This document shows positions 4,807 through 53,324 of a stretch of DNA of 64,000 nt, in pieces. Numbering within the stretch: the first letter of the stretch is position 1; each line of letters opens with the position of its first letter. A program made the position numbers and the translations under genes. The notes beneath the pieces are model-generated. The model saw only the letters and a program-made list of their open reading frames with translations, was not told where the DNA came from and did not search any database. This stretch comes from Fibrobacteria bacterium (GTDB taxonomy: Bacteria > Fibrobacterota > Chitinivibrionia > Chitinivibrionales > FEN-1185), in assembly GCA_037447435.1 (NCBI GenBank), contig JBBIGR010000002.1, forward strand, positions 64,001-128,000. Reading direction: 5' to 3'.

Positions 4807-5016
4807 GCGGACCTTTTGCTATTTAAAGATGCAAACCGGGAATCACGACCGAACGGAAACTTTTTTCGAATGATAAAAAGAATATAAATACCGGCATATG
4901 CGGTACGGCTTTTGTATGGTTGAAGGAATTTTTCATTTCGGGCGTATAAATCCATAAGACAGCCGTATCCAATCTTTTATATTTATCCAAACAGCAAGTC
5001 ACCGATAAAGGAACGT

Positions 5017-6127: not shown

Positions 6128-6282
6128 CGTAGACCAATTTTTACAATCAAGTCATCATTTATAGCCAATTTGAAAATTGTAACAAATTGATAAACAAACA
6201 GATAAGTGTTTAATTACGTAGTCCAAACGGTCTACACTTTTTGGTTTTTCACAAACCAATGCGTGTTTTGGCGTGCTATATT
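6128..6282 (+). promoter_or_regulatory. Activator-dependent promoter, copy 1: CGTAGACCA half-site (6128), IHF consensus (6180-6192), imperfect palindrome CGTAGTCCAAACGGTCTACA (6217-6236), extended -10 TGcTATATT (6274-6282)
   Basis: All four elements recur at the same offsets (0, +52, +89, +149) at 8430-8584. TAACAAATTGATA matches the IHF consensus YAANNNNTTGATW. Confidence 0.7.
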
Positions 6283-6350
6283 TATTTGCAAGGGAATTTA
6301 AATACCGAAAACCGGGATCCGTATCACACACAATAAAGAGGAGGTCGAGT

Positions 6351-8330
6351 ATGGTCCGAAAGTTCAGTTTGCTTATGTCAATTATCGCGCTTTGCGTCTT
6401 TGCCGTACAGGCGGCAACGTTAAGCGGCACGGTGAAAGTCGGCGACTCCACAGGAGCCGTTATCGCAAATGCGGTTGTCACGCTACGGGCGACCGGCGGC
6501 GGCGGGCAAACACTCGCCGATACGACGAACGCTTCGGGCGCATTCAGCTTTGCAAATGTTCCCGTCGGCACATACCGGCTTGTCGCGGCAAAGACCGGAT
6601 ACCTGGTAGCGAATTCAACAACAGTACAAATCACCGGCGCAACCGCTACCTATACGCAGAATTTGTTCCTTGTCGCAATCGGTCCGGCTGTTTTGGGAAA
6701 AATCACCGGTACCGTCATGGATTCCGTTGCCGGCACGGCGGCAACTCCCTTAAGCGGCGCCAAGGTAATCCTTAGTTCGGGTTTCGGCGCGACCGCGACA
6801 AGAGACACTGCCACGACGGCGGCTAATGGTACCTATACTTTTGATAGTGTCGCTCTCGGCACGTATACCCTTACGGCATCTGCCGCAAACCATTCCGGCC
6901 AAACCGCGACAACGACCATCATCAATGCAACAGCCCGCGTTGTAAACTTTAAATTGATCGGTGTTCAAACGGCATCCATCACCGGCACGGTTACCGACTC
7001 GGCCACTACAACAGCCATAGTCGGCGCAAAAGTGTATGTGCTTACGCGCGGCGGCGTCGCGACAATCGTTGATTCCGCCGTCACCGCAGCGGGCGGCGCA
7101 TTCACCTTCAGCGTCCCGAGCAACACAAATTATACGGTCCGTGCAAGCGCAAGTGCTTACGTTACAAGCAATATGAACGTGACGCTTACCGGAACAACCG
7201 GCCAAGCTTTAACGTTCAAACTTGTCAAAATAGCAATGGCGTCGATTACCGGGACCGTTACCGATTCTACGGCTTCGGGCGTTGCCCCGGTGGCTAATGC
7301 AAAAGTCTATCTGCGCACGACCGGGGGGACCATACTCGATTCGGCTACCACGCCCGCAGCAGGGACCTATACTTTTACTAATGTTCCGAGCGGCGTTTCT
7401 TACACGGTACGTGCAACTGCCGCCGGATACGTGACCGGCAACATTAATGTCAATGTGACCGGCACGTCCGCGGTTACGGTCAACATCCGACTTGTCAAGA
7501 CTCCGTCGGCCAATCTGTTTGTTCTGGTGAAAAAATCAAGCGATAGCACGGCGATCGCCGGCGCATCCGTAACTGTAAGCGGCACAACGGTATTGAATGC
7601 AACGACCCCGGCAAGCGGCTTGGTCGCTTTCACGGGTATCGGCATCGGCAATTACACAATCACGATTTCCGCCGCTAATTTTACCGCCCGCAGCGTTACA
7701 ACGGCCCTGACCGCAAACGCAGTCGACACGGTAAAAATTTATCTGACAGCCGCAGCAGGTGGAACAAAAGTACTCAAAGGAACCGTCGTGGATTCATCGT
7801 CGGCATCAAAGGCTCCTCTTGCCCATGTCGCCGTTATCCTTACCATCCAAGGCGCAGGCATCGGCGGAGGCACTTTGACGCTTATCGATTCCACCGACGC
7901 AACCGGCGCCTATAGCATCGCCGGCATCCCGTCGACACGGACTGGCGGCACGATAACCGCAACCCTGAGCGGCTATCGCGTCTATACCAACAATGCATTG
8001 ACGCTTGGCCAGGTCAACCTCGCCGACACGACGACATTCCGTATCGCGCTTCTCCCTGTCGCGTCATCGGTCAATAGCCCGGTTGCGATGGAAAACCCGG
8101 TTGCCCGCGGATTCACCATGACCCCCGGAATGCTTCGGTTAAGCAACTTGCGCGACGCCGGAGCGGTCAGGGTCTTTTCCGTAAACGGACAATTGCTGTT
8201 TAACAGCAAAATAGCCCCGAACACGTCGATTGTCGCAATCCCCGGCAATCTTGTAAAATCCGGAAGTGTGTACGTTGTCAGCGTTTCTCAGACAAATGCG
8301 GTGTATCGCAAACAGGTATTTGTCCCATAA
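6351..8330 (+). CDS. Secreted Ala/Thr-rich protein with six carboxypeptidase-regulatory-like beta-sandwich repeats and a T9SS-type C-terminal domain
   Basis: RBS GAGGAGG before ATG 6351. Signal peptide MVRKFSLL...AVQA, repeats of type ITGTVTDS...AKV...GxYT/F...YTVRA.A.GY, and tail VRVFSVNGQLL...GSVYVVSV...KQVFVP. Confidence 0.8.
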   Translation: MVRKFSLLMSIIALCVFAVQAATLSGTVKVGDSTGAVIANAVVTLRATGGGGQTLADTTNASGAFSFANVPVGTYRLVAAKTGYLVANSTTVQITGATATYTQNLFLVAIGPAVLGKITGTVMDSVAGTAATPLSGAKVILSSGFGATATRDTATTAANGTYTFDSVALGTYTLTASAANHSGQTATTTIINATARVVNFKLIGVQTASITGTVTDSATTTAIVGAKVYVLTRGGVATIVDSAVTAAGGAFTFSVPSNTNYTVRASASAYVTSNMNVTLTGTTGQALTFKLVKIAMASITGTVTDSTASGVAPVANAKVYLRTTGGTILDSATTPAAGTYTFTNVPSGVSYTVRATAAGYVTGNINVNVTGTSAVTVNIRLVKTPSANLFVLVKKSSDSTAIAGASVTVSGTTVLNATTPASGLVAFTGIGIGNYTITISAANFTARSVTTALTANAVDTVKIYLTAAAGGTKVLKGTVVDSSSASKAPLAHVAVILTIQGAGIGGGTLTLIDSTDATGAYSIAGIPSTRTGGTITATLSGYRVYTNNALTLGQVNLADTTTFRIALLPVASSVNSPVAMENPVARGFTMTPGMLRLSNLRDAGAVRVFSVNGQLLFNSKIAPNTSIVAIPGNLVKSGSVYVVSVSQTNAVYRKQVFVP

Positions 8331-8357
8331 AAATGGCGTAGTGTTTCTGTCCGGTAT

Positions 8358-8395
8358 GCGCCCCGCTCTCTTCTACAAAGGAAGCGGGGCGTTTT
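8358..8395 (+). terminator. Rho-independent terminator
   Basis: GCGCCCCGCT...AGCGGGGCGT stem followed by TTT, 28 bp after the stop codon. Confidence 0.7.
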
Positions 8396-8429
8396 ACTAT
8401 GCGCTCGAACATAAGCTGCAGGCTGCGCC

Positions 8430-8584
8430 CGTAGACCATTAACAAGAATAAAGCATCTGATTTAAATAGCACAAAACCATTTAACACGCTGATAATTATG
8501 AAATTAACTTTTTTATTCCGTAGTACATATGGTCTACATTTTTTTACATTTTTGTTATCGTTTTAATCTCTTTCGCGGTATATT
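8430..8584 (+). promoter_or_regulatory. Activator-dependent promoter, copy 2: CGTAGACCA (8430), IHF-like TAACACGCTGATA (8482-8494), palindrome CGTAGTACATATGGTCTACA (8519-8538), -10 TATATT (8579-8584)
   Basis: Same offsets as the 6128 element; the palindromes are 17/20 identical. Confidence 0.7.
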
Positions 8585-8616: not shown

Positions 8617-9447
8617 ATGATAAACATTTTCGATTATTACGATTACCAAAAATTCCTACGGGCTTACTACGAGAATAAAAAGGCCGTGGATCCGAATTTT
8701 TCCTATCGCTTCATTCAACAGCGCGTCGGAATAGACCCGGGCTATCTGCTTAAGGTTTTCCAGGGTAAAAAAGATCTTACCGATCGTTTTGTCCCCAAGT
8801 TCACCGCGCTGCTCAAGCTTTCTAAGAGAGAAAGCGAATATTTTTCTCTCATGGTCAGGTTCGGAAGGGCAAAAAAGAACGTCGACATCAAACGCCATTT
8901 CGAACATATGCTTTCTTTTGTCGAATTCAGCAGCAATAAAGTCGATGCCGACAAATACGAATTTTATCAAAAATGGTATTATACCGCGGTACGCGAACTC
9001 ATCGGCATCATCCGTTTTTCCGACGATTACGACGAACTCGCCCGTATGGTGGAGCCGGCAATCAGGGCGCCGGAAGCAAAAAAGGCGATAGAACTTTTAG
9101 TCAGACTCGGGTTCATCCAGAAAAACAAGGACGGCATTTACGAAGTGACGTCCCGGTTCATCACCACCGGGGAAGAATGGCGTTCAATAGCCATTCGGAC
9201 GTTCCAAAAAGAGGCGCTCGGTCTTGCCCAGAACGCACTGGACTCCATTGCAAAAGACCAACGCGACATTTCCACGCTGACCATGAGCCTGTCGGCCGAC
9301 GGTTTTTTAAAGGTTCGCGAATGCCTCGCAAAATGCCGCAAGGAAATGCTGGATATCGCCCATAAAGACCTGGACGTGTCCCGGTCTTATCATGTCAATT
9401 TTTCCCTGTTTCCGATAACGAAACAAAACCCGGAGGTGGCCAAATGA
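8617..9447 (+). CDS. TIGR02147 family (DUF4423) protein, predicted DNA-binding regulator
   Basis: IFDYYDYQKFLRAYYE...FSYR...GYLLKVFQGK, YEFYQKWYYTAVRELI, RDISTLTMSLS and YHVNFSLFP, recognised as the Fibrobacter paralogous family. Confidence 0.88.
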   Translation: MINIFDYYDYQKFLRAYYENKKAVDPNFSYRFIQQRVGIDPGYLLKVFQGKKDLTDRFVPKFTALLKLSKRESEYFSLMVRFGRAKKNVDIKRHFEHMLSFVEFSSNKVDADKYEFYQKWYYTAVRELIGIIRFSDDYDELARMVEPAIRAPEAKKAIELLVRLGFIQKNKDGIYEVTSRFITTGEEWRSIAIRTFQKEALGLAQNALDSIAKDQRDISTLTMSLSADGFLKVRECLAKCRKEMLDIAHKDLDVSRSYHVNFSLFPITKQNPEVAK

Positions 9448-10718
9448 AAACCGCCTCTGGAATTATTTGCTTCGTTTCTTTGCTTTTGGGAACCGTGTTT
9501 TTCCAATGCTCGAGAACCACCGTCGTGGGCGGCCCCGGGACAGGCTCCGAAACGACCAACGGGATAACGGCAAAAGCGGAATATCCCAGCGGGCAACCCG
9601 CATCATTCGCTTCGGTGTTTTTAAAACCGAAGAATTTCCTGCCCGACACTGCAGGTTCCGACACGTCAAGCATTCCCGACGCCACGACCGACTCGGCGGG
9701 GACGTTTGTCATCGACTCTGTTGACACCGGCGAATATACCGTTGAAATAAACGACAAAAAGGCGAATGCGGTCATTTTTACCGTTAAAAAGGACTCGGTT
9801 TCGAAAAAGCCGGTCGATTTCGGAAAACAAGTGCTGCAGCCGACGTCCACGCTCAGCGGCCACATAGACCGCAGCAACTTTCCGCTCTCGGTTTCGGTGT
9901 ATGTCCAGATTTACGGAATGAACAAAACGACGACCGTGGATAAAAACGGAGCATTCTCCTTTTCCGATATCCCCGGCGGAATCCGGGAATTACGGATAAT
10001 CGCCAGCGACAAATCGCTGGGTACCATAGACCACGATTCTATCGTCGTTAGCCCGGGATTCAACCATGACCTCGGTAATTTCCAATTACCCGTCAACTTC
10101 TGGCAAGACACGCTCATCGTCCGTGCGATTCTGGATTCCAACGGTCTGGCAAATGTCCCCGTATCCAAAGTCTCTTCCCTGCGGGACGGAAGGATTTTCC
10201 AACTCGATTTGAGCCATCGCGGGCTTAAACGGTTGCCGCAGCAAATCGGTCAATTACGCATCACGCATTTATACCTCGACAGCAATTCGCTTGAATCGTT
10301 ACCGAGCGAAATCGGATCCATCGCGTCGCTGGTGACGCTCCACGCATCCGCCAATCGCCTTGGAACCATCCCTGCCGCAATAGGCAACCTCAAGGGCCTG
10401 CAGCATCTTGACTTAAGCAACAACCTGATCGATTCTCTCCCCGTATCGGTAAGCGGACTGGTTTCCCTTGTCGATCTGTGGCTGCAAAATAATGCGTTGA
10501 CCGTATTGCCGGAATCGTTGGGAAATCTCGGCCAATTGCGCATGCTCAATCTTGAGACCAACAAAATCGCATCATTGCCTTTGTCAATAACACGATTGCA
10601 CAGCCTTGCGTTTCTTTCCGTATTGCATAACCGGCTCGCAACGGTGCCGCCATCCGTTGCGAGTTGGCTCGATATGTATTCCACCGAAAAGGAATGGAGA
10701 GTATCGCAATTGCAATAA
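9444..10718 (+). CDS. Putative lipoprotein with two carboxypeptidase-regulatory-like domains and about seven 23-aa leucine-rich repeats
   Basis: ATGA overlap with the TIGR02147 gene. Signal ends FFQC, followed by GTGSETTNG; LRRs include LDLSNNLIDSLP and LWLQNNALTVLP. Confidence 0.8.
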   Translation: MKTASGIICFVSLLLGTVFFQCSRTTVVGGPGTGSETTNGITAKAEYPSGQPASFASVFLKPKNFLPDTAGSDTSSIPDATTDSAGTFVIDSVDTGEYTVEINDKKANAVIFTVKKDSVSKKPVDFGKQVLQPTSTLSGHIDRSNFPLSVSVYVQIYGMNKTTTVDKNGAFSFSDIPGGIRELRIIASDKSLGTIDHDSIVVSPGFNHDLGNFQLPVNFWQDTLIVRAILDSNGLANVPVSKVSSLRDGRIFQLDLSHRGLKRLPQQIGQLRITHLYLDSNSLESLPSEIGSIASLVTLHASANRLGTIPAAIGNLKGLQHLDLSNNLIDSLPVSVSGLVSLVDLWLQNNALTVLPESLGNLGQLRMLNLETNKIASLPLSITRLHSLAFLSVLHNRLATVPPSVASWLDMYSTEKEWRVSQLQ

Positions 10719-12012: not shown

Positions 12013-12093
12013 TCTATATTATTGTATTGGTTCATTTTGCCCTCGAATTTAATTTGTTCCATATTGCCAAACTATCGCAGAAGGAGTCTTGTT

Positions 12094-15000
12094 ATGCGCA
12101 GGGACTGTTTTAAAACGTTCTTTTTTGCTTCCGCCGTGTTCGTCTGCTGGCTTTGCTCCCCGGTTTTTTCCGACGAAGCATTCGACAAATTGATGGATGC
12201 TAAAAATTATTCGGAAGCGATCAACTATGCCGACAAGAAAATCCCGACCACCAACCGCGAAGCCGCAGTATGGGTAAAACTCGGCGTGGCCAACCTCGAA
12301 CTCGGGCTTGCCGAAAAAGCGCTCGCCTGTTATCTGGTTGCTAACCGGATGGACGCAAAAAACTACGATGCATTGCTGGGAAGCGCGAAAGTATATAATT
12401 CCCTTTCGCAACCTGCCAATGCCGCCGCAGCAGCCAAAAAGGCGCTCGACCAAAACTTCACTCCCGAGGCAAGCTGGGAATACGCCCGTGCGTGCATTGC
12501 GCTGAACAAACCGGCCGACGCAAAAAAGGCATTGGAAAAAGTGGCCGAATCCGACCCCAACAATTCGGCCGCAGTCAAAGAACTCGGGCTAATTTACTTT
12601 AACGAAAAAAACTACGCAAAAGCGGTCGACCTTCTTAAAATAGCCAATGTCAAGCAGCCCGATCCCGCGCTCACGCTAAAAATCGGTCTGGCCTACAAGG
12701 AATCCAACGGTCCCGATTCGGCACTTGTCTATCTTAAGGCCGCAAAAGACAAAAAGCCGACCGCTCCCGAAGCGGCATTCGAACTGGCCAAAATTTATTT
12801 CAATACGCAGCAATTCGACAAGGCTGCGGCCGAATTCGAAGACGCATCCGCCAAGATCCAACTCGGTGCGTTCGACTTCTGGGCATGGGGAACATCCTTG
12901 TCAAAAACAAACGGCAATGCCGATAAGATCGTCAAGATATTCCAACAGTCGCTCGATAAGTTCGGCGCATCTAAAAGCAAGGAAGCCCTCGAGGCGCATG
13001 CGGCGGTCGGCACTTATTATCTCGACAAGAAAAACTATCAGGCCGCAGTTTCGCATTTCCAGGCCATTTATGCGGCCGACAGTACAGGCAAGCTCGTGCC
13101 CGACATCAATTTTTCCCTCGCCCTTTGCAGTCAAGGGCTCGATTTGCCCAAAAAAGCCATTGCCCAATTGGAACGCGAGCTTGTCGTAAACAGCGGGAAC
13201 GTCGGCGCCTACGCGATGCTCGGCGACTTGTACGAAAAAGCCGGGCTCGCCGAAAAGGCGAAGGCCGTGTACGAAAAAATGCTCTCGCTCAACCCCAATA
13301 ATCCCAAGATACAAATGGCGCTCGGCGACTATTATCTAAAAGCAAAAAAGCACCAGGAAGCGCTGAAATATTACCAAAAAAGCTACACGCTGGAACGAAG
13401 CGCGCTTGCGGCACAGGGAATGGCGGTCTGCGCCTTTGCGCTCGAACAGCCCGACATGGCGCGCGATGCGGCCGAGAGCGCCTTGCATCTCGATGCCAAT
13501 TTGTGGGAACCCCATGTTGTTTTGTCCAAAATTTACTTAAAAGATAAAAACTTCAAAGACGCCAAAGACCAATTCGAATTCATGGTTAAGAAACAACCGA
13601 ATTCGAAGGAATACTGGCTGCAGCTTGCGGTATGTTACGAACAGCTCAACGACCCGGTCCGGTTGGCCGACATCGATAAAAAAATCATTGCGCTCGACCC
13701 GAAAAACATCGCGTCCCGTACCAGACTTGCCCGTTTTACGTTGTCAATGGGCGATACGAAAGCTGCGATCGAACAATATAAGGAACTTGCCGCTATCGCG
13801 CCCAAAGACGCCGAAGTGTTCAAGAACCTCTACGACTTGTCTGTCAAGAACAATGCTATGACGGAGGCCGCGCAGTATTTGCGTTCCTACGTACTTCTCA
13901 AACCGACCGACGCAAGCGCCCAGAAATCGCTCGGCGACATGCTGTACGACAAAAAAGACAATGCCGGCGCATTGTCCGCGTACCGCGCGGCGGTCAAGGC
14001 CGATCCTGCGATAAAAGGCGTTTACAAAAAGTATATCGAATTGCTCGGTACCGGCGCGGAACCCACGGAATTCGCAAGTGCGCTCAACGGCGCAATCGCA
14101 ACGAGTGAAGCCGATGCGCAAACCTATGCGATGCTCGGCACTATTTTTCTCAAACAGGGACAATGCCCCAAAGCCATAGAAATGTTCCAGAAATCAATTC
14201 AGCTCGATCCGCATAACACGAACGTCCTTACGATGCTCGCCCAATGCCAGGCTAAAACCGGCAACGCGAACGAGGCGATCATTTCGTACGAACAAGCGCT
14301 GGCAATGAACGACAAGGCGGTTGAAGAACTCAAAGCGCTCGGCGATTTATACCAGCAACAATCCAAGACGTCTCAAGCCGTGGCTTCGTATAAGAAATAC
14401 CTGGCAAAAGTTCCGGCAAATTCGAAAATCGCAAAAATCATTGCCGATTACGAATACGGTCAGAAAAATTATACCGAGGCGAATGTTTACTTTGCCAAGG
14501 TTACCGGCGAAACCGCGAAATCAGCGGACATGCTTTTCAAATACGGCCAATCGTGCTATTTGGCAAAAGATTTCAAAAAGGCCAAAGAACTGTATCTGCA
14601 GCTTGCTGCGGTTACCCCGAAAAATGCCGACGTGTTTAAAACGTTGTTCGACATTGTTTCCAAAGACAGCACGGCGAAAACGGAAGCAGTGTCGTATATG
14701 CAAAAGTACGTGGCATTAAAACCCGCCGACGCGTCTGCGCAAAAAGACCTCGGCGACATGCAGTACGACCTTAAAAACAACCTCGCCGCCCTGAGCGCTT
14801 ACCGTGCGGCGCTTGCCGCCGACCCCGCCATAAAGGGTGTTTACAAGAGATACGTCGAGCTCGTCGTGCTCAAGGGCACTTCCGAGGAACTGGTCAAAGC
14901 GCTTACCGGTGCGATCAGCGCCCAGGAAGCCGACGCCGCCATGTACGGGTCCCTCGGTGCCGTATACCAAAAACAGGGTAATTGCGCAAAAGCAATAGAC

Positions 15001-18000
15001 ATGTACCAAAAGGCGATCCAGCTCGACCCGCGAAATACCGCAGTGGTGTCGAGCCTTGCCCAGTGCCAGGCAAAGACCGGCGCGACCAGCGATGCCGTGG
15101 TATCGTACGAGCAGGCCATCGCCTTAAACGACAAGGCCGTCGACGAGCTCAAGGAACTCGGCGAATTATACATTGCCCAGAAAAAAACCGCCCAGGCGGT
15201 GACGATGTTTAAAAAGTACGTCGCGAAAAAACCGTCTGACGTTCGCGTCGCCAAATTTATCGCAGACAACGAATTTTCCCAGAAAAACTATGATGAGGCG
15301 ATCAAATATTACGCAATGGTCACCGGTACTGCGGCGAATTCCGCCGAGTTCCTTTCCAAATACGGCCAATCGTGCTACTTTGTAAAAAACTATAAAAAAG
15401 CAAAAGAACTGTTCGTCCAGCTCGCGACGATTTCGCCGAAAAATGCCGACGTATTTAAAACGTTATACGACATTGCGGAAAAAGATCCCGCAACAAAAGC
15501 CGAATCGCAAACCTATTTGCAGAAATATGTTTCCCTCAATCCGGGTGATGCGTCTGCGCAAAAAGACCTCGGCGACATGCAGTACGATGCAAAGAACCAA
15601 AGTGGCGCCCTTGCGGCGTACCGTGCGGCGATAGAGGCCGACCCGTCGATCAAAGGGATATACAAACGCTATGTCGAATTGGTAATGGCAAAAGGAACGT
15701 CCGAAGAACTTGTCAAGGCGCTTACGGGAGCCATCAAGGCGTCGGAAGCCGATGCCGCGATGTTCGCCTCGCTCGGCGCAGTATACCAAAAGCAACTTGC
15801 CTGGGCAAAAGCCGTGGACATGTATCAAAAAGCAATGCAGGCCGACCCGCGCAACGTTTCCGTTTTGTCGTCGCTTGCGAAATGCCAGGCAAAATCGGGC
15901 AATATCAACGATGCCGTTGTTTCCTATGAACAGGTCGTTGCCATGAATCCTGCGGCAATCGAAGAATCGCAGGAACTCGGCGACCTGTACGCAAAACAGG
16001 GCAAAATGAGTCAGGCAATGGCGATGTACAAAAAATGCCTGGAGAAAAAGCCCGGCGACTATCGTACAGCCAAAGCGGTCGGCGATTTTTCCTATACGCA
16101 GAAGAACTATGATGACGCAATCAAATACTATTCGATGGTTTCCGGGCCCGAAACCAAAAACGCCGATTTCTTGTTCAAATTCGGGCAGTCGTGCTATTTT
16201 TCCAAAAATTACAAAAAAGCGGCGGAGTTGCTCAATCAACTCTCGGCGCTTACGCCGGCAAACGCGGAAATTTACAAAACATTATATGATATCGCCGTTA
16301 AAAACAACGGTACGAAAACCGAACAAATTGCCTATCTCAAGAAATACGTCGCCGTAAAACCCGGTGATGCGCAAATGCAAAAAACCCTGGGCGATTTGCA
16401 GTTCGAGCAAAAAAATTCGGCAGCGGCGATTGCCGCATATAAAGCGGCGATCGCCGCCGATCCCGCGATCAAAGGCTTTTACAAAAACTATGTCGAACTC
16501 GTTTCCGCAAACGGGCTTCCCGAAGATATTGTCAAGGCCATGAAGGGTGCCGTCAATGCGGGCGAAGCGGATGCCGCAATGTACGAAGCGATCGGCGGGC
16601 TCGAACAAAAAGCCGGCGCGTACGCAAAAGCGATGGACTATTATCAAAAGTCTATGCAGCTCGACCCGCGTAACGTCAAGGTCCTTTCGAGCCTCGCGCA
16701 ATGCCAGGCCAAAACCGGCAATGTAAACGACGCGGTCATTTCCTATGAACAGGCGGTTGCGATGAATGCCGATGCGATAGAAGAATACCGCATACTCGGC
16801 GAATTGTACCAGCAGCAGAAAAAGCAGTCGCAATCCATAGCGATGTATAAAAAATATTTGGAAAAACGTCCTTCGAATTATACCGTCGCTTTGGCTGTCG
16901 GCGATTTTGCATACGGCCAAAAAAACTATGAAGATGCGGCCAAATATTATGCCATGGTCGGCGGCGAAATTTCGCGTAAAGCCCCGTTCCTGTTCAAATA
17001 TGCACAATCGTGTTATAACGCGAAAAACAACAAGAAAGCCGTTGAAGTATTGTCTCAACTGGCAACGCTTACGCCGCTTAATGCCGAAGTCTTTAAAATG
17101 CTGTACGACATAACCGTTGCGGATCCGACGACTAAAAAAGACGCCAGCGGGTACCTTAAGAAATATGTAAAGCTCAGTCCTACCGATGCCGCAGCCCAAA
17201 AGAATCTCGGCGATTTGTTGTTCGAAGAAAAAAATACGGTCGGCGCGCTTGCGGCATACAAGGCAGCGCTTACTGCCGATCCCTCTCTCAAGGGTTTTTA
17301 CAAACGATATGTTGAACTGGTTACGACGCAAGGTAATGCCGAGGAAACGGTCAAGGCGTTAAAAGGAGCCATATCCGCAGGCGAAGCCGATGCCCCGATG
17401 TACTTCAATCTCGGCAGCGTCTATCAGAAAGCGGCAAATTATTCAAAAGCGATAGAGATGTTTACAAAAGCGTTGCAGCTCGATGCGCAAAACATGAAAG
17501 CATTGTCTGCGCTTGCTTTGTGTCAGGCAAAATCGGGAAATGTGAAGGAAGCGACAATCACCTATGAACAGGTGGTCGCGCTCGATCCGAATAACGTCTC
17601 GGAACTTCGCGCGCTTGCCGATTTATACCTTCGGCAAAACAAAAACGACCAGGCTATGGGCATGTATAAAAAATGCCTTGAAAAGAACCCGGGCGATTTC
17701 AAGACCGCTATTGCGGTCGGCGACTATTCCTTAAAAATCAAGGATTATGACGCCGCGGTGAAATATTATGCCATGGTCGGCGGTGCCGACGCGAAAACGT
17801 CGGCGTTTTTGCTGAATTACGGCGAAGCGTGCTACAAGAGCAAGACCTGTTCCAAGTCCGTCGATATTTACAAAGAATTATTGGTCCTGACCCCGACCAA
17901 CGCCACGGTCGTTAAAACATTGTACGACATTGCGGTCAAGGCAAATAACACTGCCGACGAGATTGTTTACTTAAAGAAATATGTCGCCCTGAAACCCGGC

Positions 18001-19920
18001 GATGCGCAATCGCAAAAAGACTTGGGCGATTTGCTGTACGATCAAAAAGAAACGTCCGGCGCTCTCTCGGCATACCGTGCCGCCCTTAAAGCCGATCCGT
18101 CGTTAAAAGGCTTTTACAAGCGATATGTCGAACTCGTGACCCCGCGCGGCACACAGGAAGAAATCTCCAAGGCGCTTGCCGGAGCCGCTGCAGCAGGCGA
18201 AGCCGATGCGACGATGTATGCGACGCTCGGTGCAATTTACCAAAAACAGGCTTCTTACGAAAAAGCAATTACGGCGTATCAAAAAGCGTTGTCCCTCGAC
18301 CCTCGTAACATTGCAGTGCTTTCGTCGCTTGCGATGTGCCAGGCAAAGAGCGGCAACACGAACGAAGCGGTTATTTCGTATGAGCAGGCAACAGCCATGA
18401 ACCCCGACGCTGTCGCAGAATACAAGGCGCTCGGCGATTTGTATTCCAAGCAGAACAAAGCCGGCCAGGCGCTTGCAATGTATAAGAAATACCTGGAAAA
18501 AAATCCCAAAGATATGGATGTGGCCAATTCCGTTGGCCAGGCGGCCTTTGCAACCAAGAAATACGACGAAGCAGTGAAATACTTTGCCATGATGTCCGGC
18601 CCGGAAACAAACAGCATGGAATTCCTGTATGTGTACGGCCAATCCTGTTATTATTCGAAAGACTACAAAAAGACCATTGAACTTTTCGAAAAATACAGAA
18701 CAAACAATGCAAAACTCGCGACCAAACATGCGGGTGCAATGACGGTTGCAAAATTACTTGCCGATTCCTACGACAAATCTAACAACAGCGAAAAGGCCCT
18801 TGAACTGTATTCGCTGTATACCAAGACCGCTGCCGGCGCCAAAGACGCCGAAGCCTGCTTCCGACGGGCACAACTTACCGAAGCTTCCAGCCCGGCAACT
18901 GCGGCTAAACTCTATGAAGAGAATACGATATCGTTTCCCAAAGACTATCGCAATTTCCTGTATGCCGGCCTATACTATGCAAAGCAGAAAACAATGCTCG
19001 ATAAAGCGTTGGGTATGATGAAGAAATGTGCCGCGCTTGCCGATTCCATTCCGTCGTTATGGCTGGAAATGGGACAGGTGTACGGAAAACTCGGAAAAGA
19101 CAAGGAAGAACTTGAAGCGTATCGCAAGTTCATCCAACTCGATCCGGAAAACGCCGAAGCCTGCGGAAAAATCGGGGAAATCCTGCTTGCCAAGAAAAAG
19201 ACGAACGACGCCATGGTATTTTTGGAAATGGCCAATGCGCTCAGAGGTAACGACCCGAAATTCATGGTGCTTCTGGCTCAAGGATATCTGACGACCGACC
19301 GTTCCAAGGAAGCACTTGATTTATTGGAAAAGGCCGACAAGGTCAAGCCCGACGACGAAAACGTCAAGAGCATGCTTTTCGAATTATACAAGCAGACCAA
19401 TCAGCCGCAAAAAGCGCTTTCAGCCATTAAGGTAATTGCCGAAAAACGCCGCGACACGAAAACGAAACTCAAATATGCCGAGGCATTATATCTTGCGGGT
19501 TCCTACGCTCTTGCCGAAAGTGCGATTAAAGACATTACGGCAACCGAGCCGGAAAACATCGATGCGCTTATGATTTACGGTAAAACGCAATCGGTGCAGA
19601 ACAAGCTCGACGATGCCTTGGAAACGTACAAAGAAATATCCTATATCAATCCGAATTATGCGCCTGCATTGTACGAACGCGCCGAAATCTACGTTACCCA
19701 AACCAAGATCCAGTGGGCCAAAACGTTTTACGAACGCGCGCTCAAAGCCGATCCTAATTTCGCCCTGGCCGAACTCGGGCTTGCAAAGCTCGCAAAAAGC
19801 CAAAAAGATGTTGCAGGTTATCAGCTCCATCTGGAAAAAGCAAAAAAGCTGGATCCGAACAACAGGCTCATTCTCGATGAAACCGGCGGTGTAGCAAAGC
19901 CAAAAAAAACCGGTAAATAA
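12094..19920 (+). CDS. Giant exported tetratricopeptide-repeat protein (2,608 aa)
   Basis: RBS AAGGAG, signal peptide MRRDCFKTFF...VFS, continuous TPR motifs (LGxxY...A...Y.KA...DP.N). Confidence 0.9.
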   Translation: MRRDCFKTFFFASAVFVCWLCSPVFSDEAFDKLMDAKNYSEAINYADKKIPTTNREAAVWVKLGVANLELGLAEKALACYLVANRMDAKNYDALLGSAKVYNSLSQPANAAAAAKKALDQNFTPEASWEYARACIALNKPADAKKALEKVAESDPNNSAAVKELGLIYFNEKNYAKAVDLLKIANVKQPDPALTLKIGLAYKESNGPDSALVYLKAAKDKKPTAPEAAFELAKIYFNTQQFDKAAAEFEDASAKIQLGAFDFWAWGTSLSKTNGNADKIVKIFQQSLDKFGASKSKEALEAHAAVGTYYLDKKNYQAAVSHFQAIYAADSTGKLVPDINFSLALCSQGLDLPKKAIAQLERELVVNSGNVGAYAMLGDLYEKAGLAEKAKAVYEKMLSLNPNNPKIQMALGDYYLKAKKHQEALKYYQKSYTLERSALAAQGMAVCAFALEQPDMARDAAESALHLDANLWEPHVVLSKIYLKDKNFKDAKDQFEFMVKKQPNSKEYWLQLAVCYEQLNDPVRLADIDKKIIALDPKNIASRTRLARFTLSMGDTKAAIEQYKELAAIAPKDAEVFKNLYDLSVKNNAMTEAAQYLRSYVLLKPTDASAQKSLGDMLYDKKDNAGALSAYRAAVKADPAIKGVYKKYIELLGTGAEPTEFASALNGAIATSEADAQTYAMLGTIFLKQGQCPKAIEMFQKSIQLDPHNTNVLTMLAQCQAKTGNANEAIISYEQALAMNDKAVEELKALGDLYQQQSKTSQAVASYKKYLAKVPANSKIAKIIADYEYGQKNYTEANVYFAKVTGETAKSADMLFKYGQSCYLAKDFKKAKELYLQLAAVTPKNADVFKTLFDIVSKDSTAKTEAVSYMQKYVALKPADASAQKDLGDMQYDLKNNLAALSAYRAALAADPAIKGVYKRYVELVVLKGTSEELVKALTGAISAQEADAAMYGSLGAVYQKQGNCAKAIDMYQKAIQLDPRNTAVVSSLAQCQAKTGATSDAVVSYEQAIALNDKAVDELKELGELYIAQKKTAQAVTMFKKYVAKKPSDVRVAKFIADNEFSQKNYDEAIKYYAMVTGTAANSAEFLSKYGQSCYFVKNYKKAKELFVQLATISPKNADVFKTLYDIAEKDPATKAESQTYLQKYVSLNPGDASAQKDLGDMQYDAKNQSGALAAYRAAIEADPSIKGIYKRYVELVMAKGTSEELVKALTGAIKASEADAAMFASLGAVYQKQLAWAKAVDMYQKAMQADPRNVSVLSSLAKCQAKSGNINDAVVSYEQVVAMNPAAIEESQELGDLYAKQGKMSQAMAMYKKCLEKKPGDYRTAKAVGDFSYTQKNYDDAIKYYSMVSGPETKNADFLFKFGQSCYFSKNYKKAAELLNQLSALTPANAEIYKTLYDIAVKNNGTKTEQIAYLKKYVAVKPGDAQMQKTLGDLQFEQKNSAAAIAAYKAAIAADPAIKGFYKNYVELVSANGLPEDIVKAMKGAVNAGEADAAMYEAIGGLEQKAGAYAKAMDYYQKSMQLDPRNVKVLSSLAQCQAKTGNVNDAVISYEQAVAMNADAIEEYRILGELYQQQKKQSQSIAMYKKYLEKRPSNYTVALAVGDFAYGQKNYEDAAKYYAMVGGEISRKAPFLFKYAQSCYNAKNNKKAVEVLSQLATLTPLNAEVFKMLYDITVADPTTKKDASGYLKKYVKLSPTDAAAQKNLGDLLFEEKNTVGALAAYKAALTADPSLKGFYKRYVELVTTQGNAEETVKALKGAISAGEADAPMYFNLGSVYQKAANYSKAIEMFTKALQLDAQNMKALSALALCQAKSGNVKEATITYEQVVALDPNNVSELRALADLYLRQNKNDQAMGMYKKCLEKNPGDFKTAIAVGDYSLKIKDYDAAVKYYAMVGGADAKTSAFLLNYGEACYKSKTCSKSVDIYKELLVLTPTNATVVKTLYDIAVKANNTADEIVYLKKYVALKPGDAQSQKDLGDLLYDQKETSGALSAYRAALKADPSLKGFYKRYVELVTPRGTQEEISKALAGAAAAGEADATMYATLGAIYQKQASYEKAITAYQKALSLDPRNIAVLSSLAMCQAKSGNTNEAVISYEQATAMNPDAVAEYKALGDLYSKQNKAGQALAMYKKYLEKNPKDMDVANSVGQAAFATKKYDEAVKYFAMMSGPETNSMEFLYVYGQSCYYSKDYKKTIELFEKYRTNNAKLATKHAGAMTVAKLLADSYDKSNNSEKALELYSLYTKTAAGAKDAEACFRRAQLTEASSPATAAKLYEENTISFPKDYRNFLYAGLYYAKQKTMLDKALGMMKKCAALADSIPSLWLEMGQVYGKLGKDKEELEAYRKFIQLDPENAEACGKIGEILLAKKKTNDAMVFLEMANALRGNDPKFMVLLAQGYLTTDRSKEALDLLEKADKVKPDDENVKSMLFELYKQTNQPQKALSAIKVIAEKRRDTKTKLKYAEALYLAGSYALAESAIKDITATEPENIDALMIYGKTQSVQNKLDDALETYKEISYINPNYAPALYERAEIYVTQTKIQWAKTFYERALKADPNFALAELGLAKLAKSQKDVAGYQLHLEKAKKLDPNNRLILDETGGVAKPKKTGK
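13930..18700 (+). repeat. Intragenic super-repeat of 819 bp (273 aa, about 8 TPRs), six copies with the last partial; end coordinate approximate
   Basis: The LGD(M/L) anchor of the QKxLGD motif starts at 13930, 14749, 15568, 16387, 17206 and 18022 (periods 819, 819, 819, 819, 816). Confidence 0.9.
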
Positions 19921-43637: not shown

Positions 43638-44270
43638 ATGATACAAACCATTGCAACGTTTTTTAATTCCGGCGGCGCTTTCATGTGGGTCATTCTTGCC
43701 GTCGGCGCAATGGCAACCGCGGTTGTCCTCGAACGTTTGATTTTCTACTTTATCACCTGCAATGTTTCGGGGCCTAAATTATTGCAAAAAATCGCCGCGG
43801 CATTGCAGAACGGGAAAACGGACGAAGCCAAGGACCTTTTAAAAAAAGGCAAGGCGCCCATGCATGTTCTTGTCCGCACCGCGCTCGAACGTTATGGCGC
43901 AAACATGAGCGTCGCCGACATCGAGGAAGGCATCAGCGAAGCGGCGATCATCGAAATGCCGAAAATGATCCAACGGCTCAACTATCTTTCCCTTTTCGCC
44001 AACATCGGAACCTTGCTCGGTTTGCTCGGTACGATTTCCGGTCTGCAAGGTTCGTTTTCATCATTGGCCTCGGTGGAGGCCTCCAAAAAGGCGACCATGC
44101 TTGCCGCAGGTATCGCCGAAGCCATGAATTGCACCGCGTTCGGCCTTATCGTAGCCGTGCCCTGCATGTTATTGTATACATTCTTATATAACAAGCAGGC
44201 ACAATTGACAAAAAGCATAGACGACACGGTCATCAAACTCCTCAACCTGATGAAACGGCTTAAAGCATGA
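43638..44270 (+). CDS. exbB: MotA/TolQ/ExbB proton channel protein
   Basis: GTLLGLLGTISGL, GIAEAMNCTAFGLIVAVP; RBS AAGGAG. Confidence 0.9.
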   Translation: MIQTIATFFNSGGAFMWVILAVGAMATAVVLERLIFYFITCNVSGPKLLQKIAAALQNGKTDEAKDLLKKGKAPMHVLVRTALERYGANMSVADIEEGISEAAIIEMPKMIQRLNYLSLFANIGTLLGLLGTISGLQGSFSSLASVEASKKATMLAAGIAEAMNCTAFGLIVAVPCMLLYTFLYNKQAQLTKSIDDTVIKLLNLMKRLKA

Positions 44271-44767
44271 AAACGCTTTCGCTTTCGTCTAAAACCTTTG
44301 TCCCGTCCGATGCAATGGATGCGGAAATCGACATCGACGTCAAGCCGATGATGAACGTTCTTGTCATTCTCATTCCGTTCCTCGTATCGGTTTCCGAATA
44401 CACGAGGCTTGCCATTATCGACATGTCGTTGCCGCCCAATATCACCAGCGTGGGGGGGCAAGGATCATCCGAAAAACCGAAGGTAAAGTTGACTGTCGTG
44501 TTGGCGCCGCAATATTGCACCATCGTACTCGGTGAAAACATTCTCGATTCGATTGCCCGCAAATCCGACGATTATTCCTACGATACGCTGTCGACCCTTT
44601 TGGCCAAACGGCGCGCCGCGCTTGAGATAAAAGACGAAGTCATTGTTGCGCCGCGCGACGGCATTCATTTCAAATACGTCGTTCATGTCATGGACGTATG
44701 CAAAAAAGTCGGGTTCGAAAAGATCAATTTGGCCAGCGCCACCGAAAACCCAAACGCCGGACAATAA
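44267..44767 (+). CDS. exbD: ExbD/TolR family protein 1 (TM Asp replaced by Asn)
   Basis: IDVKPMMNVLVILIPFL; FKYVVHVMDVCKKVGFEKINL. Confidence 0.85.
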   Translation: MKTLSLSSKTFVPSDAMDAEIDIDVKPMMNVLVILIPFLVSVSEYTRLAIIDMSLPPNITSVGGQGSSEKPKVKLTVVLAPQYCTIVLGENILDSIARKSDDYSYDTLSTLLAKRRAALEIKDEVIVAPRDGIHFKYVVHVMDVCKKVGFEKINLASATENPNAGQ

Positions 44768-44769
44768 GC

Positions 44770-45243
44770 GTGCCCTTATTCAAGAAAAAATCATTAGCGC
44801 CGGTCGATCATTTCGGCGACACGTTTAAACCGCAAATGACGTCGCTTATCGATATTCTCACTTTGTTATTGGTTTTCCTGATTCAAAGCTTTTCCGCCGA
44901 AGGTAATCTGGTTACCCCGTCCGCCGACCTTCAGCTTCCGCTGTCGTCGTCGAAAAAGCCTCCCAAGCCGAGCCTTATGCTCGAATTGACAAATACCGGA
45001 ATCATCGCCGACGGGCATCAGCTTGCCGATAATAAAACCTTTGCCGCGGCAGGCGACTTGACCGTGAAAAACGTTTACAATTGGCTCATCGCACAGAAAA
45101 CCCGATTGGCTTCCACAGACGCCGACAAAAAAATCATACTCCAATGCGACAAGGATTTGGAGTTTAATATCGTCAAACGGATCATGTACACCTGCAGCAA
45201 GGCGGGCTTTACCGATTTTTCCGTCCTTGTCATCGAGGAATAG
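44770..45243 (+). CDS. exbD: ExbD/TolR family protein 2
   Basis: TSLIDILTLLLVFL; LQCDKDLEFNIVKRIMYTCSKAGF; GTG start at 44770. Confidence 0.85.
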   Translation: MPLFKKKSLAPVDHFGDTFKPQMTSLIDILTLLLVFLIQSFSAEGNLVTPSADLQLPLSSSKKPPKPSLMLELTNTGIIADGHQLADNKTFAAAGDLTVKNVYNWLIAQKTRLASTDADKKIILQCDKDLEFNIVKRIMYTCSKAGFTDFSVLVIEE

Positions 45244-45247
45244 CATC

Positions 45248-46045
45248 ATGCAACCCCAAAACGCCTCCCTGCAACAAATCCTCGTCCCGCCTCCGCAAAG
45301 CGGCCAAAACAATGTATTCACCGTTATTTTTATCATAACCGTTCTGGCATTTTTGGGATGCGGGCTTTACCTTAAAACCATAAAGCCCGTTCCAAGCGCG
45401 GCGTTCGAGGAAAAAAAAGCGGTTATGACCCAAACGCAATTCCTGATCGCCGAGAAGAAAAAAACACCGCCTCCCAAACCGAAAGCGCCCGAGGTAAAAA
45501 AGGACGCGCCAAAGGAAGTCATAGACCTTACCAAGGCTCCTTTGCTTAATCAGAAAACCGATTTCACGGCACCCGAACAACCCAAACAAACAACGGCGCC
45601 GGCCCGGCCGGTGTACGGCCTCAGACGCGTCTTTTCGACCGGATTCGGGGCCGGCGGCACGGCGGGCGATGCGGTGATCGGCAAAGTAGGAAATACTTTA
45701 AACAAGGATGTCGACACGGTCCACGCAACAAAGCAGGATCTGAAAGGAACCGTTGTTTCGATTTCAACGGTATCGACCGCTCCCCGGTTAAAACACGACG
45801 TTAAACCGCAATTTACCAAAGAAATGATAGCCGCCAAGCTCGAAGGCGTCATCAAGGCGGAATTGCTTATCGATATCGACGGTAAAGTCAAGGAAGTAAA
45901 GATACTCAATGATTTGGGATTCGGCACGAAAGAGAAAGCATTGGAAGCGTTTTTGCAATGGGAATTCGACCCTGCCATGCGCGACGGCAAGCCGGTTGCC
46001 ACCTGGATTTCATATTCCATTCGTTTCGTTCTTTTGCAGGAGTGA
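45248..46045 (+). CDS. tonB: Energy transducer TonB
   Basis: N-terminal TM, Pro/Lys-rich linker, C-terminal LEGVI...IDIDGKV...WEFDPAMRDGKPV...IRF. Confidence 0.88.
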   Translation: MQPQNASLQQILVPPPQSGQNNVFTVIFIITVLAFLGCGLYLKTIKPVPSAAFEEKKAVMTQTQFLIAEKKKTPPPKPKAPEVKKDAPKEVIDLTKAPLLNQKTDFTAPEQPKQTTAPARPVYGLRRVFSTGFGAGGTAGDAVIGKVGNTLNKDVDTVHATKQDLKGTVVSISTVSTAPRLKHDVKPQFTKEMIAAKLEGVIKAELLIDIDGKVKEVKILNDLGFGTKEKALEAFLQWEFDPAMRDGKPVATWISYSIRFVLLQE

Positions 46046-46047
46046 TC

Positions 46048-48843
46048 ATGCTATTTAAATCCGTTTGTAACGTACCTCGAAAAGTATTGCCTTTAATTTG
46101 CGTTTTAGCAACAATTTTAATGGGGCAGATATCCGAAACAGTACCGGCAAAAGGAAAGGCCGACGCCGGGGCAGCGGCATCGCAACAATCGGTCCAACAG
46201 CAGCCGGACAGCCTTCCGGCCATCGATTCCATGCCGCGGCTTTTGGAGTTTATCAAAGCCGATTATCCCGCAGATTGCGTAAAAAAAGGCATTGAGGGCG
46301 AAGTCGTGCTCGACCTGGTGGTCGACACCCTCGGCATCGTCGACTCATGCGCTGTTGTCAAGGGACTTTTTCCGGCCCTCGATTCAAGCGCATTGCATAC
46401 GGTAAAAAAATTCCGTTTCAGGCCTGCGCTTGCGCAGGGTTTTCCTATTCCCGTGATCATGCAGTACGCCTATCGGTTCAACCTCGATGAAATCGTCCAA
46501 AAAATCCAGCAATACGTCAATTTCAAAGGAAGACTCCTGGAACGCGGAACCCGTATACCCGTCCGGGATGCGACCGTTGTCGTCGCGTTTCCCGATTCAT
46601 CGGCCGATCATTCCCTTTCAATTCCTTTTTCCGCGTATTTAAAAAAAATCGGAAGCTTTCCTAATCAGCATTGTGAAGACAAGACCATCATCACCACTAC
46701 CGATTCCTTGGGCAGGTTCGAATTCACCTCGCTTCCGTCGGGCCCGATCACCGTCAAAGCAATATATCCGGGTTACGAACAATTGAAAGAAGAGGAACGT
46801 CTAAAAGCCGGCGAGCAAACCGAAGTTACCTATTATATCCAGCGGTTTTCGTACGGAGAAAACGAAATCGTCGTATACGGGAAAGCGGAACAAAAAGAAG
46901 TCGCGAAGCGGACTCTCACGCTTAACGAAGTAAAAAAGGTTCCGGGGTTTGGCGGCGATGCGGTCAAGGTTGTGCAGGCGTTACCCGGCGTTGCCCGCGC
47001 ATCGTTCATGAGCGGCGCCATTGTCGTACGCGGCGCAAGCAACGCCGATTCCCGGTTTTACCTTGACGGCGTGCAAATCCCGGTGTTGTTTCACTTCGGC
47101 GGCCTCAAATCGACCTATAATTCCGATGCGCTCGAAAGCGTCGATTTTTATCCCGGAGGGTTCGGTACCCGATACGGTGACGTGACTGCGGGCGTCATAG
47201 AAATCAAGGGGCGCCAGGCAAAAAGCGACCGCATCCATGCAACGATTGACGCCAATTTGTACGACGCGTCTTTTATGGTCGAAGGCCCGGTTACTAAAAA
47301 TATTTCCACGTTGCTCACGGCACGCCGCAGTTTTATCGGCGATATTTTGAGCTGGGTGATACGAAAGATCGATTTACCGGTGTCCGTGGAACCTTATTAT
47401 TACGATTATATCTGGCGTACCGATTATACTCCTTCAAAAAATCAGAAGTTTTATCTTACGCTTTTCGGATCTCAAGACGAATTGCAGCTCATAACCCGTC
47501 CGATACGCGGCGGTTTGCCCAATGTCGGCGACGGTTCCGACCAGGTAAACCAGAAAACGTTTTTCAATATGGGGATTGCGGGTTGGGACTGGACCGTATC
47601 GCCGTCGGTGAAAAATTCGTTCACGTACTCCTTGACTTATGGCGACAAATACCTGTCGGTTTTCAACTTTGTCAAAAGCGATCAACGGGCATGGATACAT
47701 AACCTGAGAAACCAAACTGCACTTACGCTTTCACCGGATCTTACCATGAACGTCGGTTTGGATGCGCAGGTGTATCCTGCAAACTTTTACCTCGATATGA
47801 TAACCGCTGCGGACACGGTTTCCAAGGATACCGTCAACAACTGGGTATTCGGCGACATCGGGCCGTATCTTAATTTCGACTGGAAACCGTTGCCCGCGCT
47901 TGAAATAATTCCGGGCATTCGATACGACTATTACCCCGAACTTGATTATAGAGGCGGCATTGTTCCGGCATTTTGGGACTACGCACATATCGACAATCAT
48001 CAAGGTACCTCGGGCGAACCGTCGTTGCGGTTGACGGTAAAATATAAACTCAACGAAAAGCATTTGGTGAAATTCGCACTAGGCAATTACAATCAGACGC
48101 CGCAACCGCTCGGCCAAACCATCATGGAAAAATGGGGCGACCCGCATTTGCCTGCGACAAAGGCGGCGCAATATGTTGCCGGATACGAATGGACCATGTC
48201 GGACCTCATCCATACCGATATTGAGGCGTATTATAACGACCAGTGGAACATACCCCGGTCCGTCACCAGCCAAGACATCGCTTCGGGTTCGCAAAAAGGG
48301 TTTTATGCAGACCAAAACGGCCGGATGTACGGCCTCGAACTCATGCTCAAACACGATCAAGGAAAGCACTTTTTCGGCTGGATAGCCTATTCACTTTCCA
48401 GAAGCGAACGCCAGGACCCGTTTACAAAACAGTGGAGCCTGTATTCAAAAGACGAAACGCATAACGTGCAGTTCGTCGGCAGTTATCGCTTGCCTAAATA
48501 CTGGGAAATCGGCTGCCGCGTCAGATACGTCACCGGCGATCCCACCACCCCCATCGCGGGAATCGGATACAATGAAGGAACGCAAACCCCGCGGTTTTTT
48601 GAAATTTTCGGTCCAAAGAACTCGGCGCGGCTGGACCCGTTTTTCCAGCTTGATTTACGTATAGAAAAGAAATTCATGATGAAAAACTGGATCCTGACGT
48701 CATACCTTGACATCCAGGACTTGAGCTATTTTGTTTATAAAAGCCCGGAATTTTACACCTATAATTTCAGATACGATCAAAACACCAAAACGCCGGTCGG
48801 TGCGATAATTTACCCGTCTGTCGGGCTTTCTGCGGAATTTTAA
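46048..48843 (+). CDS. TonB-dependent receptor with an N-terminal TonB C-terminal-like domain and a carboxypeptidase-regulatory-like domain
   Basis: ADYP...GIEGEVVLDLVVDTLG...FRFRPA; plug VQALPGV..IVVRG..LDGVQIPVLFHFGG, GGFGTRYG; barrel ending SAEF. Confidence 0.9.
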   Translation: MLFKSVCNVPRKVLPLICVLATILMGQISETVPAKGKADAGAAASQQSVQQQPDSLPAIDSMPRLLEFIKADYPADCVKKGIEGEVVLDLVVDTLGIVDSCAVVKGLFPALDSSALHTVKKFRFRPALAQGFPIPVIMQYAYRFNLDEIVQKIQQYVNFKGRLLERGTRIPVRDATVVVAFPDSSADHSLSIPFSAYLKKIGSFPNQHCEDKTIITTTDSLGRFEFTSLPSGPITVKAIYPGYEQLKEEERLKAGEQTEVTYYIQRFSYGENEIVVYGKAEQKEVAKRTLTLNEVKKVPGFGGDAVKVVQALPGVARASFMSGAIVVRGASNADSRFYLDGVQIPVLFHFGGLKSTYNSDALESVDFYPGGFGTRYGDVTAGVIEIKGRQAKSDRIHATIDANLYDASFMVEGPVTKNISTLLTARRSFIGDILSWVIRKIDLPVSVEPYYYDYIWRTDYTPSKNQKFYLTLFGSQDELQLITRPIRGGLPNVGDGSDQVNQKTFFNMGIAGWDWTVSPSVKNSFTYSLTYGDKYLSVFNFVKSDQRAWIHNLRNQTALTLSPDLTMNVGLDAQVYPANFYLDMITAADTVSKDTVNNWVFGDIGPYLNFDWKPLPALEIIPGIRYDYYPELDYRGGIVPAFWDYAHIDNHQGTSGEPSLRLTVKYKLNEKHLVKFALGNYNQTPQPLGQTIMEKWGDPHLPATKAAQYVAGYEWTMSDLIHTDIEAYYNDQWNIPRSVTSQDIASGSQKGFYADQNGRMYGLELMLKHDQGKHFFGWIAYSLSRSERQDPFTKQWSLYSKDETHNVQFVGSYRLPKYWEIGCRVRYVTGDPTTPIAGIGYNEGTQTPRFFEIFGPKNSARLDPFFQLDLRIEKKFMMKNWILTSYLDIQDLSYFVYKSPEFYTYNFRYDQNTKTPVGAIIYPSVGLSAEF

Positions 48844-53278: not shown

Positions 53279-53324
53279 ATATTTTTCTCCACATTTTTAA
53301 ATAGTTTACGCGGCTATTAAATAG

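Follow-up and report, generated by a model that had tools for sequence, protein, structure and literature searches.

The 64,000-nucleotide stretch of DNA analysed here (the window; positions 64,001 to 128,000 of contig JBBIGR010000002.1, from the Fibrobacteria bacterium assembly GCA_037447435.1) carries a locus in which two promoter regions, P1 and P2, share one architecture. The order at the locus is an MscS gene, P1, a gene for a 659-aa protein with PF13620 repeats, a probable terminator, P2, a regulator gene of the TIGR02147 family, and an overlapping gene for a lipoprotein-like protein with leucine-rich repeats (LRR); the neighbours of the regulator are the repeat protein, the LRR protein and an aldo-keto reductase. 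The first gene (target gene 1, 6351..8330, + strand) encodes repeated carboxypeptidase-regulatory-like (PF13620) domains behind an N-terminus that resembles a signal peptide by eye, and domain searches found no catalytic domain in its product. It is followed by a G+C-rich inverted repeat with a short T run (8359..8395, + strand), which we read from its inverted 7-mers as the probable terminator between the two units and which is absent from the terminator-scan output. The regulator (276 aa; 8617..9447, + strand) was assigned to TIGR02147/DUF4423 by profile scores. The partner gene (9444..10718, + strand) overlaps the regulator stop by 4 nt and shows Cys22, the motif GGPGTGSETTNG, a PF13620-like domain and C-terminal leucine-rich repeats. 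From the sequence comparisons below, we consider it likely that the twin promoters form a module read by the adjacent TIGR02147 protein, which would activate both its own operon and the upstream gene.

An original prediction, made from the letters of this stretch, had placed four shared elements in the two regions, and we found all four where it put them: CGTAGACCA at 6128 and 8430, 13-mers at 6180 and 8482, 20-mers at 6217 and 8519, and TATATT at 6277 and 8579. All pairs share one ungapped offset, 2302, and the 20-bp palindromes agree at 17 of 20 positions, the remaining 3 being different. The operator core is an 18-bp palindrome of the 7-4-7 form. In P1, the auxiliary half-site GTAGACC (6129..6135, + strand) lies 89 bp upstream of the operator start and is oriented as the left half of the operator; it is a lone half-site, with no second palindrome. 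It is followed by an IHF-like site (6180..6192, - strand) that matches the IHF consensus WATCAANNNNTTR at 9/9 positions, and by the operator itself, GTAGTCC-AAAC-GGTCTAC (6218..6235). An A/T tract read directly 3' of the operator (6238..6249, + strand) is a candidate site for the RNA polymerase alpha subunit's C-terminal domain (alphaCTD), and the predicted -10 hexamer TATATT (6277..6282, + strand) stands 59 bp from the operator start, with no TTG at the -35 position. The same series is repeated in P2: half-site GTAGACC (8431..8437, + strand), again 89 bp upstream of the operator start; IHF-like site with one mismatch to the consensus (8482..8494, - strand; 8/9 positions); operator GTAGTAC-ATAT-GGTCTAC (8520..8537); T tract (8539..8545, + strand); and predicted -10 hexamer TATATT (8579..8584, + strand). 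The promoter scan gave no sigma-70 -35/-10 pair at P1 or P2, in agreement with the lack of a recognisable -35 noted earlier, and the palindrome centre indeed falls near -62 if TATATT is the -10.

In the 5.05-Mb source genome (G000), GTAGACC followed by GGTCTAC 70-100 bp further on occurs only at P1 and P2, and a half-site with a palindrome (up to 2 mismatches) 70-170 bp on is likewise found in only two places. The 155-bp blocks of P1 and P2 are identical at 85/155 positions; in a comparison of 1,147 upstream regions each block had the other as its best match, the next-best matches reaching 71 and 68 and the medians being 56-57. Identity is concentrated at the motif positions (43/49) as compared with positions outside the four motifs (42/106). 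Since the latter value is slightly above the ~31% expected (p=0.03), P1 and P2 probably go back to an old duplication and have since kept their motifs and spacing. In a metagenome orthologue of the locus (L031, regulator 91% identical), all four elements, including the IHF-like site of P1, precede the secreted gene at unchanged spacing. In the stretch of L031 from the terminator to the start of the regulator gene (4861-5000) we noticed a different hairpin and no P2 module, which may indicate promoter loss, a gain in G000, or misassembly. In another genome, G070, a near-identical operator-to--10 block is present on two contigs (L103:3664 on C22 and L101:9020 on C92), which suggests promoter duplication as a route of target recruitment.

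The regulator scored 284.4 bits against TIGR02147 (cut-off 50) and 113.7 against PF14394 (cut-off 30). Its structure was modelled from 56 sequences (pLDDT 89.5, pTM 0.61); a single-sequence prediction with a pLDDT of 39 was not used. In the predicted model, residues 7-90 match helix-turn-helix (HTH) chains of the HigA-type XRE class (Z 8.3-9.0, root-mean-square deviation (rmsd) ~2.8-3.3, 76-82 residues aligned) and residues 110-186 match ArsR-like winged helices, while the C-terminal alpha/beta part gave a middling whole-region match to Kfla_6221 (4g6q; Z 7.4, rmsd 5.1). The predicted fold is thus an XRE/HigA-type HTH, a winged helix and a C-terminal alpha/beta part. At the sequence level there was no Pfam HTH match and only weak matches in the PDB (E 0.06 and 0.12), and Foldseek returned no match at E<=0.001; HTH_3 is annotated on 14% of one Atlas cluster. 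Profile searches found neither an AAA+ domain nor an AraC HTH domain. We infer dimerisation from the palindrome alone. Two further TIGR02147 matches in G000 are irregular: the gene at C28:60972-61804 was matched in two pieces (model positions 1-180 and 171-271) and is apparently split, and C53:13080-13508 matches model positions 1-141 only.

To relate operators to regulators, we assembled 163 distinct TIGR02147 proteins together with their upstream DNA; the sources were G000, one metagenome scan and 81 genomes covered by five protein searches. Seven HTH groups cover 85 of these genes and 78 are unclassified. In an unguided search for 7-4-7 palindromes, operator types tracked the HTH sequence. 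The GTAG operator was present upstream of 13/16 genes of the Q34+DPG type, of 1/69 other classified genes and of 0/77 unclassified ones (one gene having too little upstream DNA to be counted). Each of the six other HTH groups has its own 7-4-7 palindrome, nearly confined to the group; in this group-versus-operator table the diagonal is circular, the empty off-diagonal less so. For the SPxF and SSAGF subgroups no operator was found. The same operator is kept upstream of proteins that are only 48-56% identical. In G000 the 28 TIGR02147 matches correspond to 27 genes, of which one is split. Only the paralogue studied here is preceded by the GTAG motif, and several others have repeated sites of their own. 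The palindrome is therefore paralogue-specific, and not the operator of the whole TIGR02147 family as had been proposed; the search pattern suggested with that proposal, GTAGWCC-N4-GGTCTAC, matches only the 6218 site. The narrower idea that the TIGR02147 protein binds the site fared better, in that comparison points to the adjacent protein as the likely binder, the operator type following the HTH. Upstream of another G000 paralogue (C26:21562, locus L075) we noticed GGGCACA-AAA-TGTGCCC, a palindrome of the 7-3-7 form that is preceded, at a distance of 95 bp, by a lone half-site; the architecture is the same, the spacer different.

Covariation between regulators and half-sites was examined in 68 operator-bearing genes (effective n 35) over 268 protein columns. 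Residue 41 ranked first of all columns for half-site position 2 (normalised mutual information 0.38, next 0.25, median 0.05): His41 is paired with G in 19/20 half-sites and Pro41 with T in 76/76. In a tree built without the HTH, the combination of His41 and GGTGAC appears on two separate branches. Residue 52 was the top column for half-site positions 6 and 7; for bases 3 and 5 the best columns lay outside the recognition helix.

Activation, as opposed to mere binding, is suggested by promoter geometry. Throughout the genome, words of the TATATT type show a strand bias upstream of genes, with TTG enriched at the corresponding -35 position, so that TATATT can be regarded as a fair -10. For the spacing analysis we used 69 of the 85 classified genes, those with an operator within 3 mismatches, which gave 55 non-redundant promoters. 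In 51 of the 55, a -10 lies within 45-90 bp of the operator start, and the distances fall into three clusters, 18 at 57-60, 28 at 66-71 and 5 at 77-80, with none at 61-65 or 72-76; the mirror control was flat. In a later-fetched set, a palindrome of the general class, a pattern written after the frozen-rule test on the same 40 genes, preceded 22 of the 40, and 19 of those 22 were in phase. With the start site placed from the predicted -10, the operator centres fall near -62, -72 and -83; the corresponding peaks of CRP class I promoters are at -61.5, -71.5 and -82.5 (PMC4132738). TTG at the -35 position was found in 4/51 promoters, and in neither P1 nor P2, in comparison to 64/274 sense sites genome-wide. 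The tract 3' of the operator also recurs, positions +20 to +24 being A/T in 45-54 of the 55 promoters. The three helical-phase clusters and the rarity of a -35 thus make the predicted activator role of the TIGR02147 protein probable, and both promoters, that of its own operon and that of the upstream, probably secreted protein, are probable targets.

The auxiliary half-site and the IHF-like site recur among the related loci and are missing from some orthologues. A lone exact upstream half-site in left-half orientation was present in 17/26 DPG and DH promoters and in none in reversed orientation (shuffle mean 0.12); it is missing in 6/11 non-redundant Q34-type promoters. Its helical phasing was weak (R ~0.46-0.55, distances 34-169). 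An IHF-like site occurs in 11/19 loops between half-site and operator, the loci counted being related to one another, as compared with a shuffle mean of 3.7 and a maximum of 8 in 300 shuffles; the controls gave 5/19 loops in the opposite orientation, 6/34 loop-less promoters and an A/T-rich background of 17%. In nine of the 11 cases the site falls slightly before mid-loop, at a fractional position of 0.36-0.46. Two HU/IHF-family genes are present in the genome; both score best on IHF models, below their cut-offs. Other subgroups carry a further half-site that either covers the predicted start site (64-65 bp from the operator start) or is located 100-122 bp downstream; half-sites on or downstream of the start site are more easily read as negative. 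IHF-type sites are enriched inside the loops, which agrees with an IHF-bent loop as put forward earlier, and the activating role given to it there is putative. Because the half-site is missing in 6/11 promoters and extra half-sites elsewhere lie over or beyond the start site, the odds modestly favour a modulating, possibly AraC-like negative role of the loop over an activating one.

An open reading frame lies downstream of 151/159 regulators; it overlaps the regulator stop in 124 cases and has an early Cys, by a crude test, in 147. In most of these partners the Cys is followed by a Gly-rich motif, which differs from one subgroup to another. In G000, a pattern for this motif, tuned on these same partners, matched 9/18 adjacent proteins and 0/385 other candidate lipoproteins; since none of the latter match, the motif is not a general export signal. 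The coupled lipoprotein is a candidate for the signal input of the system. NCBIfam matches between the partner and LRR effector models were rejected, as they all fell far below cut-off and reflect the repeats only.

Palindromes of the general class are found in 28/1,463 upstream regions of G000, ten of them with a phased -10: two at this locus, six hits (five sites) of the motif of the C26 paralogue and two of that of the C43 paralogue. These two kinds of sites were assigned to paralogues by motif likeness. The C26-type sites, GTGGAAC-N4-GTTCCAC with a -10 at 68-71 (G000:C26:31139, 39850 and 42357; C19:70062; C22:34835), precede genes for glycoside hydrolases (GH) of families GH2, GH3, GH3 and GH16 and an unassigned gene, and the site at C26:31139 faces both the regulator and a divergent GH2 gene. 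The C43-type GGTGAC palindromes, with a -10 at 69 (G000:C43:12399 and C58:3676), precede a GH9 gene with a carbohydrate-binding module (CBM3) and a GH5 gene, which we regard as a candidate cellulose regulon of the C43 paralogue. At four orthologous loci a second GTAG operator lies before a gene for a rhamnogalacturonan lyase of polysaccharide lyase family 11 (PL11), identified by Pfam in one case and by N-terminal likeness in three, in contrast to target gene 1 of the present locus, which has no recognised catalytic domain.

In the mechanism that we favour, a TIGR02147 dimer would bind the 18-bp palindrome through its N-terminal XRE-type HTH, in which operator specificity would be set by residues 41 and 52 and, on less clear grounds, by residue 34. 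By the rules for CRP class I, a regulator centred near -62 would contact alphaCTD on the A/T tract beside the operator and so switch on the -35-less promoters of its own operon and the upstream gene. More speculatively, the lone half-site and the IHF-like site would form a bent loop that tunes the switch. We prefer an off state like that of AraC: before a signal arrives, the dimer would bridge the auxiliary half-site and one half of the operator. Within the model we give this state just under an even chance, see cooperative enhancement by the loop as somewhat below evens, and think a loop with no role improbable. The signal may come through the coupled lipoprotein, the least supported step.

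Several observations speak against this mechanism or narrow it. The closest orthologue, L031, lacks P2 altogether. The HTH groups and consensus operators were drawn after seeing the data, 16/85 classified genes were dropped from the spacing sample for want of an operator match, and 78/163 genes are unclassified. The Q34/GTAG group has approximately one evolutionary origin in the HTH-free tree, so that its 13 loci cannot be counted as independent; for half-site base 3, Q34 comes only in fifth place. Rules frozen beforehand covered only 5 of 40 unseen genes, with 2 hits and 3 misses, and none of the 40 was of the Q34+DPG type; one unseen gene, L253, carries a GTAG palindrome without Q34. For these last reasons the HTH-operator code, though real, is only partial; two loci outside the class fit the His and non-Q rules by eye. 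The operator pattern on its own, derived from the Q34-type upstream sites themselves, was found in 20/81 genomes, no more than its reversed control (22/81); its 22 sites comprise 9 directly upstream of Q34-type regulators, 2 further promoters and 11 that are more than 1.5 kb from any TIGR02147 gene. For TTG at the -35 position, antisense sites already give a background of 31/185. Lastly, a loose palindrome-plus-phase test was positive for 8/27 G000 paralogues against a background of 339/1,463 (23%), and thus the phased architecture is shown for a subset of paralogues only.

The regulator could use the same sites mainly for repression, or act there as a concentration-dependent activator/repressor, with the palindrome anchoring repressing loops. 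The nearest HTH folds are those of repressors (HigA and DdrO, with lambda CI at E=0.12), and the further half-sites of other subgroups lie over the predicted start site or downstream of it. However, the main operators stand upstream of the core promoter in strict helical phase, mostly without a -35, and neither P1 nor P2 has a downstream half-site, so we regard repression as unlikely. Still less probable is a different, global regulator that binds the palindrome and counts the TIGR02147 gene among its targets: L253 and another locus, L245, do carry GTAG-containing palindromes with other HTH sequences, but only two such phased sites exist in the genome, both at this locus, and the palindrome varies between paralogues within one genome, tracking HTH residues.

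An IHF site combined with upstream activator sequences is the classic layout of sigma-54 promoters, and P1 and P2 might be read in this way. Neither region, however, has a -24/-12 motif or GG-N10-GC, a sigma-54-like match was seen in 2/55 related promoters, and the regulator has no AAA+ domain; with promoter motif and AAA+ domain both lacking, we rejected this reading as highly improbable. It is equally hard to credit that the likeness of the promoters is a leftover of duplication and that the motifs have no function. The slight excess of identity outside the motifs makes a duplication likely, and G070 has its near-identical distant promoter copy, but the motifs are far better kept than the rest (43/49 vs 42/106) and the operator persists before regulators that have themselves diverged to 48-56% identity.

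The mechanism proposed for P1 and P2 resembles known class I activation. At Escherichia coli CRP class I promoters (PMC4132738), a palindrome near -61, -71 or -82 is likewise combined with a poor -35 and an A/T-rich element just downstream. The regulator here has a predicted fold unrelated to that of CRP (XRE HTH and winged helix), and its operators are local and paralogue-specific; the extra lone half-site and the coupled lipoprotein also set it apart. The XRE/Cro-CI class (lambda CI, HigA, C proteins) has in common with it the predicted N-terminal HTH, a palindromic operator and, probably, autoregulation, whereas our protein, at 276 aa, has a second winged-helix domain and no restriction-modification or toxin gene in its unit. 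A controller (C) protein, which would be small, HTH-only and linked to restriction-modification genes, was ruled out, given the three-part 276-aa chain and neighbours that are not restriction-modification genes. AraC acts at araBAD as a light switch, with a distant half-site and an adjacent pair by the promoter; a loop from the distant half-site to one proximal half-site keeps transcription repressed until the ligand comes. The distant single half-site and promoter-side pair found here could share one dimer in the same manner; the likeness is anatomical only, however, as the regulator lacks an AraC domain, the main site, near -62, has the form of an inverted repeat and the ~89-bp loop holds an IHF-like site. 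Trans-envelope glycan sensing is known from sigmaI-RsgI of Clostridium and the hybrid two-component systems of Bacteroides. Here too there are many paralogous pairs of regulator and envelope protein, each apparently tied to secreted glycan-processing genes; but the regulator belongs neither to the sigma factors nor to the response regulators, and its partner is lipoprotein-like with no evident cytoplasmic part.

Fibrobacterota are major degraders of plant polysaccharides, and TIGR02147 is a large paralogue family in them, with 27 genes in this genome. The protein studied here is a member of TIGR02147 (Fsuc_second)/DUF4423 (PF14394), far above both cut-offs; the operators, spacing rule and targets are inferences of the present analysis. 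No description of TIGR02147/DUF4423 function was found in the literature searched, which left out most subscription journals; in a Bdellovibrio proteome paper, DUF4423 appears as a table row for Bd3700 (PMC12546842). The analysis provides an operator that can be tested for one member, a rule of spacing that points to activation and, in part, a protein-DNA code; applied to G000, this code yields coherent candidate targets. As a tentative extension, less probable than not in our estimate, TIGR02147 genes may encode the cytoplasmic side of trans-envelope signalling systems that form an undescribed class, with dozens of copies per Fibrobacterota genome. The translationally coupled lipoprotein, whose ligand-binding C-terminus would vary and whose N-terminus carries a system-specific motif of the GGxGSETTN type, would relay an outside signal, often polysaccharide, to the XRE/winged-helix activator, which would flip from the IHF-bent half-site loop to the palindrome; the HTH-operator code would then predict the secreted enzymes of each paralogue. 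Should the operator, spacing rule and code themselves prove right, they would open a way to see how Fibrobacterota fit their sets of enzymes to the substrate, and would supply a natural library of activator-operator pairs that may be orthogonal.

Elsewhere in the window we noticed a 304-aa protein (1633-2547, - strand) without a Pfam match. Its two halves are 42% identical, and both contain a DH...IN.CK motif that is HNH-like by eye. A 2,632-aa protein (12022-19920, + strand) has apparent tetratricopeptide-like repeats and internal repeated modules. At 43638-48840 (+ strand), ExbB and ExbD genes are followed by a gene whose 961-aa product has a TonB C-terminal domain close to the N-terminus and weakly matches an outer-membrane barrel, and two tandem flagellin genes, of 290 aa each, lie at 52240-54254 (- strand).

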